Source: a virus. From it: DNA of 44,653 bases. The notes beneath the pieces are model-generated. The model did not search any database. It saw nothing but the letters and a program-made list of their open reading frames with translations, and was not told the DNA's origin. Shown here in pieces: positions 43,735 through 44,396 of this stretch (position 1 is its first letter; each line of letters begins with the position of its first letter). The stretch lies in the IMG/VR virus record IMGVR_UViG_3300013179_000001, one strand, 5' to 3'. Made by a program: the position numbers and the translations under genes.

Positions 43735-43774
43735 GACCCTCACCCCTCGTGGGTGGGGGTCTTTTCGTCGTTTT
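43735..43774 (+). terminator. Rho-independent terminator of late operon (11-bp stem, loop CTCGT, TTTTCGTCGTTTT)
   Basis: GACCCTCACCC / GGGTGGGGGTC read directly; tail identical to 17951-17963. Confidence 0.65.
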
Positions 43775-44117
43775 AGGGGGCAACCTCAAAATCAAAGTCC
43801 GCCATCGTGTACGCCATGTGGATATGCCCCATAAGGGCGGTGTGTTCGGAGCGGCTAAGCCCATCGCCTGTAACCATGTTGGTGAGAATCACAGGTTTGC
43901 CTTCTGCCTCTGCCTGCTCGGCAATCTGTAGGGCTTGGTCGATACAGTCTGCGAACCGCACCCATTTGTCCTGGAGCCATACACCGGCATCGAGTGGGGG
44001 CTGGTGGGTGGTTTCCCACCGTTGGGCGGTTCGTATGTTCACGTCGCAGGCGGTAGCTACGTCCTGGGAGGTTAGGCCCATGCTGGTGCGTAGGATGCGA
44101 AATTCATTCGGGGTCAT
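43773..44117 (-). CDS. XRE-family HTH protein (accessory cassette gene 2)
   Basis: [24 protein letters not shown]; AAGGA RBS; start ATG overlaps upstream stop (ATGA). Confidence 0.65.
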
Positions 44118-44341
44118 GCTTGTGTCCTTACTTCGGTAATGATGCCGAGATTAAAGTATTGGCTTCCGACTTTGCGGTCGATGGTGCCCCACTGGCCCGC
44201 GGTGTTGGTACGCCGGAACGTCACGTCTTCGGGGAAGTACTCTTTGAGGACGGTGTACATGTCGGGGCCGGTGTAGGTGCCAAGCGTAGTGGTGATGGTC
44301 TGAATTTCGGACTTTCTTTCCGATTGTGCGGCCTCTTCCAG
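44117..44341 (-). CDS. Small protein (accessory cassette gene 1), probable non-AUG (CUG) start at 44339-44341; first canonical ATG only at 44258-44260
   Basis: Open frame 44117-44359 with non-biased, protein-like composition; promoter-predicted TSS ~44361, AAGGGGA RBS 6 nt before CTG; TGA overlaps ATG of downstream HTH gene. Confidence 0.4.
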
Positions 44342-44367
44342 GGGTGTTCCCCTTGCCGTCTAACACC

Positions 44368-44396
44368 ATTATATGCCGTAGTTTACGACATTGCAA
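44368..44396 (-). promoter_or_regulatory. Near-consensus sigma70 promoter on minus strand (TTGCAA -17 nt- TATAAT) for accessory cassette
   Basis: Reverse complement of 44368-44396 reads TTGCAA tgtcgtaaactacggca TATAAT. Confidence 0.55.

Follow-up and report, generated by a model that had tools for sequence, protein, structure and literature searches.

The window analyzed here, the whole 44.6 kb (44,653 nucleotides) of IMG/VR virus record IMGVR_UViG_3300013179_000001, corresponds to a complete temperate phage from the Corynebacterium tuberculostearicum group. As proposed in a preliminary description of this DNA, it contains a self-contained two-gene cassette that has its own promoter, is transcribed antisense to the late operon and adjoins the attachment site attP and the integrase gene (int). 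The cassette consists of a near-consensus promoter with a palindrome in its spacer, a predicted structured 5' leader, a small gene, denoted S below, and a gene for a 114-amino acid (aa) helix-turn-helix (HTH) protein (Table 1). The interpretation favored here, with a probability of roughly 0.6, is that the cassette forms an autoregulated operon of the Aca2 type, the cargo of which is an orphan gene, a candidate for anti-defense, that has lost its ATG start codon in this phage lineage. The nearest relatives of the cassette come from C. tuberculostearicum, C. aurimucosum, C. hiratae, Corynebacterium sp. YSMAA5_1_F9 and metagenomes; among the deposited phages, no close DNA-level match to the window was found.

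Table 1. Features of the cassette and of the adjoining regions, in the coordinates of the window
Feature	Position	Strand	Remarks
-35 hexamer TTGCAA	44391..44396	-	TTGCAA or TTGCCA in 20/20 distinct platform copies
IR1, 19-bp palindrome ATGTCGTA-AAC-TACGGCAT	44373..44391		spans the promoter spacer, in contact with both hexamers
-10 hexamer TATAAT	44368..44373	-	TATAAT, TATACT, TACACT or TAGACT in relatives
Predicted 5' untranslated leader, 56 nt	44306..44361	-	start at ~44361 inferred from the position of the -10 hexamer
Leader hairpin 1	44329..44358	-	outer stem CGGC/GCCG around AGGGG-AACA-CCCCU; minimum free energy (MFE) and RNAalifold predictions
Leader hairpin 2, UCGGA-AAGAAAG-UCCGA	44307..44323	-	Shine-Dalgarno (SD) purine run 44312..44321 in and beside the loop
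Small cargo gene S, 63 codons and stop	44114..44305	-	first codon ATT (44305..44303) where relatives have ATG
SD sequence AAGGA of the regulator gene	44125..44129	-	7 nt before its ATG
aca2-like gene, 114-aa Aca2/YdiL-type HTH regulator (predicted)	43773..44117	-	ATG overlaps the TGA of S
G+C-rich hairpin, 11-bp stem	43735..43761		T-run on the plus-strand side only
TGCGGGAT tandem pairs	44419..44437, 44626..44644, 80..98	-	first pair just upstream of the cassette promoter; not part of the operon
ImmA-like M78 peptidase	1921-2436	-
146-aa protein without family	2303-2740	-
Divergent CI-like HTH protein	2825-3127	+
Bro-N/KilAC antirepressor	3183-3965	+

The extent of S can be gleaned from its homologues. 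About 20 of these start with MQTI(I/T)TTLG and are 63-64 aa long, or 68 aa where an internal insertion is present, and in DNA alignments their ATG coincides with the ATT of the window at 44305..44303, from which it differs by a single G-to-T change. The family start is ATG in all 19 loci first collected and in 24 of the 24 related loci that were checked outside the ATT lineage. Substitutions in S are distributed over the three codon positions as 13/11/37, and among the 63 codons, 26 variable columns are purely synonymous compared with 17 that involve amino acid changes; by this codon-position signature, S is a real coding gene. Upstream of the family start, the frame in the window remains open as far as an in-frame TAG (44362..44360), and the number of such open codons varies between 1 and 106 in the relatives, so that the upstream open frame is not meaningful. 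The gene calls of 85-141 aa for S in some assemblies are artifacts of these open frames. The true SD sequence of S is likely to be GGAAAGAAAG, a purine run that ends 6 nt upstream of the start codon.

The ATT is a genuine allele of recent origin. The identical 114-aa protein is encoded on more than 23 contigs, and two related loci (L032 and L033) share 99.8% identity with the window over 1 kb, as well as its leader and its S protein, and start S with ATG, whereas two others, 99.9-100% identical, have ATT, namely, L031, an integrated copy beside the host glnA with 12 further similar places, and the int-adjacent L034. The ATT allele thus occurs in several independent samples and in both integrated and int-adjacent forms, and because the independent samples carry ATT where near-identical phages have ATG, it is an allele in circulation rather than a sequencing error. 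In Escherichia coli, AUU initiates at ~1-2% of the efficiency of AUG, and the only confirmed AUU starts are those of infC and pcnB (bioRxiv 10.1101/063800). Like these two genes, S combines ATT at the start position with good spacing from the SD sequence, but the AUU of infC is conserved and regulatory, whereas that of S is recent and lineage-specific and is found in none of the 24 related loci outside the lineage; hence it is best read as a knock-down mutation. Given its location 6 nt after the purine-rich GGAAAGAAAG, the ATT allele appears to be a strong knock-down and could be null. The preliminary description had considered a recently inactivated ATG as one option. A start codon has indeed been lost recently, but the lost codon is the ATT at 44305 and not the CTG further upstream that was originally suspected.

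The promoter was described previously as TTGCAA-17-TATAAT, and it is indeed found, with a 17-nt spacer, at 44396..44368 of the minus strand. A promoter scan of positions 43300..44653 detects this single sigma-70-like site, with 10 of 12 matches. Because shuffled sequence yields 0.8 +/- 1.0 such sites, that is, about the same as the one found, support for the promoter comes from conservation, and the 17-nt spacing is unchanged in all 20 distinct related copies. The palindrome IR1 in the spacer is predicted to be the operator at which the Aca2-like repressor binds. Only one site in the whole window fits the pattern ATGYCRTA-N3-TAYGRCAT exactly, compared with 0.04 matches expected by chance when up to two mismatches are allowed. 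Across 20 versions of the control region, IR1 is conserved and covaries: its arms show 0-2 mismatches in the related copies and change jointly, with ATGCCGTA/TACGGCAT in some relatives as against ATGTCGTA/TACGACAT in others. An IR1-like site with two mismatches at 247..265, within the 3' part of int, is taken as a chance occurrence. A repeat search with exact 6-nt seeds missed both IR1 and the leader hairpins; the repeat that it did yield, GGTGTT/AACACC, was rejected because it is not conserved in relatives.

The leaders that precede S are 56, 57 or 58 nt long and include two near-invariant blocks, AGACGGC and GAAGAGGCCGCA. A fold with two hairpins is predicted for 18 of the 20 distinct leaders. 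In hairpin 1, the GGGG/CCCC pairing is replaced on both sides, by GGAG/CUCC in several lineages and by AGAG/CUCU in L025. The stem of hairpin 2 shows no clean covariation among the 20 distinct leaders; an apparent case in L025 (UGGC/GCCA) was set aside, the MFE fold of L025 itself being different. No Rfam family matches the leader.

The second gene of the cassette encodes an HTH protein, as had been noted from the sequence, and several lines of evidence indicate that it is a divergent regulator of the Aca2/YdiL family (PF08965). In direct searches, the curated libraries yield for the 114-aa protein only sub-threshold HTH matches over residues 1-45, tblastn aligns only the N-terminal ~50 residues, with XRE genes of Streptococcus phages, and PADLOC returns two negligible matches in the HTH region (E 0.01-0.02) and none for S. 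When a profile of 15 close homologues was compared with all Protein Data Bank (PDB) sequences, Aca2 (7ezy_A, E 0.025, residues 1-80) and Aca3 came out on top, and with a profile of 34 sequences that extends down to 36% identity, the E-value for 7ezy_A improves to 3.5e-5 (residues 1-85), with YdiL and the Aca2 of phage ZF40 also appearing. A protein from C. flavescens (P0044) that is 47% identical to the window protein over its full length carries PF08965 and is named Aca2/YdiL-like by NCBI; it is also, together with P0069, among the precomputed PF08965 hits. PF08965 is matched by 5 of the 34 family members at E<=0.01, the best at 1.2e-5; P0014 scores 0.015. In the AlphaFold model of the regulator (pLDDT 87.8), helices at residues 3-12, 17-24, 28-36, 42-71 and 89-105 and strands at 76-78 and 110-112 follow each other in the order a1-a4, b1, helix, b2. 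This is the published topology of Aca2, in which the HTH (a1-a4) is followed by a C-terminal b1-a5-a6-b2 dimerization extension (PMC8633003), with a5 and a6 here forming one helix. A Foldseek search gives full-length matches only to Aca2 (7ezy, 7vjo, 7b5j, 7vjp, 7vjq), 2ox6 and 1s4k, with TM scores of 0.54-0.72. Two residues, R29 and Q32, are invariant in all 34 family members and correspond in the alignment to Arg and Gln in the recognition helix of Aca2, which are R30 and Q33 in ZF40 Aca2, where a role of R30 is described (PMC6765145); the motif R-x-x-Q-x-W-E in this helix is common to the regulator and 7ezy.

The control region can be defined as a platform that consists of the promoter, IR1, AGACGGC, hairpin 1, GAAGAGGCCGCA, hairpin 2 with the SD sequence and the start codon, and it is found in 20 distinct versions with different cargo. 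In the window and most of the other loci, the platform is followed by S and the regulator gene. In prophages of C. aurimucosum and C. hiratae, an additional gene, X, is located between the leader and S (L010, ~2559-2795; L012, after the leader at 2477); it encodes a very basic protein of 78 aa (pI ~11) without a family or PDB match. A paralogy of X and S was suspected by eye, but BLAST shows no similarity between them. Prophages of C. accolens and a plasmid-like contig of C. flavescens carry an unrelated family of 79-84 aa in front of the regulator gene, with the regulator ~47-52% identical. A second, nearly identical copy of the platform is present without a regulator gene in L021 (4069-4355), L022-L024 (4060-4346) and L025 (4445-5299), where the cargo is either an acidic 64-aa protein (pI 4.1) or a glutaredoxin-like protein of 70 aa along with a DnaB-like protein of 166 aa; the window has no second platform copy. 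These sequence relationships suggest that one Aca2-like protein controls several operons in trans, and sharing of Aca2 sites by neighboring operons is known from Aca2 regulons (PMC13551039). The regulator gene itself is not always kept: in L038 and L039 (13-228; two metagenome samples), an in-frame deletion that fuses S (...ITEVRT) to VADFDYEVAP has removed all of it save the last nine codons and left S intact. A scan of viral contigs for the leader pattern gave 29 matches, of which ~20 are chance matches in coding DNA without a promoter, and only L064 and L067 are new true copies.

Neither S nor X and the other cargo proteins gave anything usable in searches against Pfam, PHROGs, NCBIfam and PADLOC, and tblastn of S against phages had no match. 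An exhaustive scan of 1.84 billion representatives with a profile hidden Markov model of S recovered three true clusters only. The AlphaFold model of S (pLDDT 89) has a beta-beta-alpha-beta-beta-beta arrangement; it has no significant structural neighbor, and no known anti-CRISPR protein (Acr) is homologous to S or matches its fold significantly. The same profile scan also picked up a 4,421-aa repeat protein (P0039) with an E-value of 2e-6 for the whole protein, each repeat being weak. Its ~17 repeats of the form TIIDYDGT..DV.LRRNG..GT.DK.T..NYF (for example, 870-924, 1044-1095 and 4127-4178) weakly resemble residues 3-51 of S, so the fold of S may be related to this repeat unit, or else the match is spurious.

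Taken together, these features can be accommodated in the following scheme. Once phage DNA enters the cell, the strong, near-consensus promoter would fire, producing a transcript that consists of the 56-nt structured leader, S (63 aa) and the gene for the Aca2/YdiL-family HTH protein. A dimer of the HTH protein would then bind IR1 in the promoter spacer and shut the promoter off, and, by analogy with ZF40 Aca2, the protein may also bind the two leader hairpins, blocking the ribosome-binding site (RBS) in hairpin 2. Because the cargo slot is exchangeable, accommodating S, X together with S, or unrelated small proteins, S would most likely be an anti-defense protein, with type I-E CRISPR-Cas and restriction-modification as examples of possible targets. 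In skin corynebacteria, restriction-modification systems are universal and type I-E CRISPR-Cas is present in some C. tuberculostearicum (PMC12542688). From the ATT allele, S would be made at a few per cent of the normal level at best, or not at all, with the regulator gene keeping its own SD sequence. The extent of the genes, the altered start codon, the relationships and the modeled fold of the regulator, the control region as a conserved and covarying unit and the swapping of cargo are shown by the sequences, whereas the binding of the regulator to operator and leader RNA, the time of expression and the anti-defense action of S are inferred. We are fairly sure of the regulatory part of this scheme, that is, Aca2-type control, and put the anti-defense role of S slightly short of even odds.

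Several observations speak against this interpretation of the cassette. The window protein falls below the cut-off of Pfam PF08965 and does not reach even E<=1, so that its apparent membership in the Aca2/YdiL family comes from profiles, bridging homologues and predicted structure, and only one of five models of the regulator is confident (pLDDT 87.8 compared with 54-68 for the others). The RNA support is thin, with one covarying pair among eight leaders, plus a second position in L025, both leaders of which fold otherwise, and the single-sequence z-score of the leader is -1.4. With covariation so scarce and such a z-score, the predicted RNA structure of the leader is no more than plausible. 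Finally, regulators of the Aca2/YdiL type are also known from settings that have nothing to do with anti-CRISPRs (PMC8434428).

The alternatives concern both what is translated from the cassette and what it does. In the preliminary description, the product of the small gene was a 75-aa protein initiated at a CUG codon with AAGGGGA as the SD sequence. The elements of this proposal are all present: 75 codons extend from the CTG (44341..44339) to a TGA (44116..44114) that overlaps the ATG of the 114-aa gene (44117..44115) as ATGA, AAGGGGA (44354..44348) is located 6 nt before the CTG, the sole in-frame ATG lies 27 codons in, at 44260, and CUG, too, can initiate at ~1-2% of AUG in E. coli (bioRxiv 10.1101/063800). 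However, orthologues that lack the extended frame, which the same description had named as evidence against itself, do exist. The CTG is CTA in L003-L008, the different lengths of the leaders break the frame, a stop codon lies one codon ahead of the family ATG in L009 and L012, and in the type B loci, as upstream in L010 and L012, another gene takes this place. Rather than an RBS, AAGGGGA appears to be the left arm of the predicted hairpin 1, which is conserved and covaries and in which it is paired with the CTG, and the third-position bias of substitutions was measured only within the 63 family codons, which begin 12 codons downstream of the CUG. Because neither the CTG nor its frame is conserved and the codon bias lies inside the 63 codons, initiation at CUG is refuted to the extent that we give it almost no credence. 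The converse possibility, that S is dead in the window and the operon makes only the regulator, for other platform copies or for nothing, is a serious one, if somewhat less probable than even. It is favored by the replacement of ATG by ATT on an otherwise identical background, by the low efficiency of AUU, by the failure of gene callers to call the S open reading frame (ORF) in L031 and L034 and by the single platform copy of the window. Nevertheless, the ORF has no other lesion, and with a very strong promoter upstream and the ATT at the optimal distance of 6 nt from the SD sequence, the allele may equally well be hypomorphic or null; besides, its occurrence in several independent samples, whether integrated or int-adjacent, means that it is not obviously disappearing.

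With respect to function, the preliminary description had placed the cassette among toxin-antitoxin, abortive infection (Abi) or superinfection exclusion (Sie) modules, for which no support was obtained, neither protein matching a toxin or defense family. A type II toxin-antitoxin system in the HigBA- or MqsRA-like order, with S as the toxin and the HTH protein as antitoxin and autorepressor, would account for the small gene followed by an HTH gene with a stop/start overlap, and loss of the start codon would be tolerated in a toxin; the HTH also resembles, weakly and far short of the cut-offs (NCBIfam E 0.0015-0.035), those of MqsA and Xre antitoxins, and the HTH of Aca2 was itself first modeled on MqsA (PMC6765145). 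Yet S persists intact in the two independent samples that have lost the HTH gene, small proteins unrelated to S are found behind the same platform along with the same regulator, which implies that S and the HTH protein are not a cognate pair, and some platform copies have no adjoining regulator gene. The full-length regulator fold, moreover, is predicted to be that of Aca2/YdiL and not of HigA or MqsA, and S matches no toxin family or fold. The cassette thus shares with MqsRA and HigBA the overlapping gene order and, probably, autoregulation, but differs from them in that its HTH is dispensable in nature, its partner is exchangeable and its HTH is N-terminal, joined to an Aca2-type dimerization domain; we consider a toxin-antitoxin function very improbable. 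The main rival is a 'moron' that is expressed from the prophage and serves defense or superinfection exclusion, with the cargo guarding the lysogen and the Aca2-like protein merely setting the level of expression. Morons typically occupy such a place, at the edge of the prophage next to attP, and have a promoter and a terminator of their own, the contexts of Aca2-like regulators are diverse (PMC8434428), basal expression of aca2 is retained in ZF40 lysogens (PMC6765145) and the cargo has no assigned function. On the other side, S, X and the other cargo have no match in PADLOC or to other defense families, all experimentally characterized operons with this regulator family and layout in the literature covered carry anti-defense genes (PMC6765145, PMC13551039), and a soluble 63-aa protein without an enzymatic motif would fit an inhibitor better than an effector. 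A moron of this kind is, in our estimate, unlikely, although a more credible alternative than a toxin-antitoxin pair.

Elsewhere in the window, a tyrosine integrase is encoded at 22..1410 of the minus strand, there are late genes as well as an endolysin and a holin at 41.2-42.9 kb, and beside int, at 1.9-4.0 kb, there is an immunity region with ImmA, CI and antirepressor genes; given this separate region, the HTH protein of the cassette is not the lysogeny repressor. The cassette is convergent with the plus-strand lysis genes, and the hairpin at 43735..43761 between them looks like the terminator of the late operon because its T-run is on the plus-strand side only; an Rfam search at 43700..43768 gave weak terminator-like noise only. 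The two plus-strand genes after the holin (43345-43710 and 42920-43348), which are syntenic in all related prophages, encode a protein of 121 aa (phrog_24256) with an N-terminal transmembrane segment and a coiled coil and one of 142 aa (phrog_4026) that is labeled 'minor tail protein' yet is membrane-like, and they may be further lysis components. The sequence TGCGGGAT occurs in seven copies in the window, compared with 1.95 expected and with none of 100 shuffles reaching seven. Six of these form three tandem pairs with 11-nt spacing around the int-cassette junction and are probably the integrase arm-type sites of attP; the motif TTGCGGGATTTTTGCGGGAT is also found upstream of the platform in the C. 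accolens prophages (L021-L024). The attP core is probably near 44555, where the homology of the window to L031 (region 1063-1964, beside the host glutamine synthetase gene) stops. Related prophages with other integrases are located at tRNA-Asn (L001) and tRNA-Arg (L003); neither the window nor L031 was found to contain a tRNA.

If the proposed interpretation is correct, its main value lies in a marker for anti-defense cargo and in natural variants for testing the idea. The platform, being compact and sharply delimited, would mark such cargo in the phages and prophages of corynebacteria of the skin and in their plasmid-like elements, and platform searches would lead directly to new inhibitors of CRISPR-Cas or restriction in these bacteria, which belong to a genus of clinical and cosmetic relevance in which genetic manipulation is difficult. 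Tentatively, with odds somewhat against it, S, X, the 79-84-aa family and the acidic 64-aa protein, as occupants of one kind of Aca2-controlled slot, would be new anti-defense families in phages of Corynebacterium on human skin, with ATG/ATT as a natural on/knock-down polymorphism. These families might inhibit, for example, type I-E CRISPR-Cas, an activity for which the searches made here found no characterized inhibitor counterpart in Corynebacterium. The natural variants, including the cargo swaps, the deletion of the regulator gene and the start-codon knock-down, amount to ready-made genetic experiments. For annotation, the boundary of S is corrected, the gene having been missed in the ATT lineage and over-extended in other assemblies.

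Among characterized proteins, two members of PF08965 (Aca2_YdiL, formerly DUF1870), YdiL (1s4k) and SO3848 (2ox6), resemble the regulator structurally over its full length (TM 0.61-0.72), and homologues of the window protein at 47% identity are annotated with the domain, even though the window protein itself scores under the family cut-off; YdiL and SO3848 lack both an assigned function and a link to phage cargo operons. The closest known system is the acrIF8-aca2 operon of Pectobacterium phage ZF40 (PMC6765145, PMC8434428, PMC8633003, PMC13551039). The hosts are far apart, Actinomycetota for the cassette and Pseudomonadota for ZF40, and the regulator is only 15-19% identical to ZF40 Aca2 in structural alignment and 26% identical to the Aca2 of 7ezy. 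The operators differ as well, with ATGYCGTA-N3-TACGRCAT in the cassette as opposed to a TTCG core in ZF40, the IR1 and leader repeats of the cassette are not obviously the same sequence, and S, a candidate anti-defense protein, is unrelated to AcrIF8. In the ZF40 operon, a TTGCTT-N17-TATAAT promoter is blocked at its -35 and -10 elements through IR1, with a second repeat, IR2, in the 5' untranslated region (UTR) (PMC6765145), and an Aca2 dimer is reported to bind two 5'UTR hairpins and to block the RBS, an 'actino-motif' having been described for actinobacteria (PMC13551039). The order of the parts in the cassette is the same: a near-consensus promoter with N17 spacing, an inverted repeat on the -35 and -10 elements, repeats in the 5'UTR near the RBS that could form hairpins and a small cargo gene followed by the regulator gene. 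In both systems the cargo varies between relatives, extra copies of the operator and leader precede neighboring operons, and the regulators belong, as far as the model of the cassette protein indicates, to the same fold class, with an N-terminal HTH (a1-a4) and a C-terminal b-a-b dimerization module. The cassette would, if this interpretation holds, extend the control logic of Aca2, a DNA operator combined with a structured leader, to a well-sampled group of actinobacterial phages.

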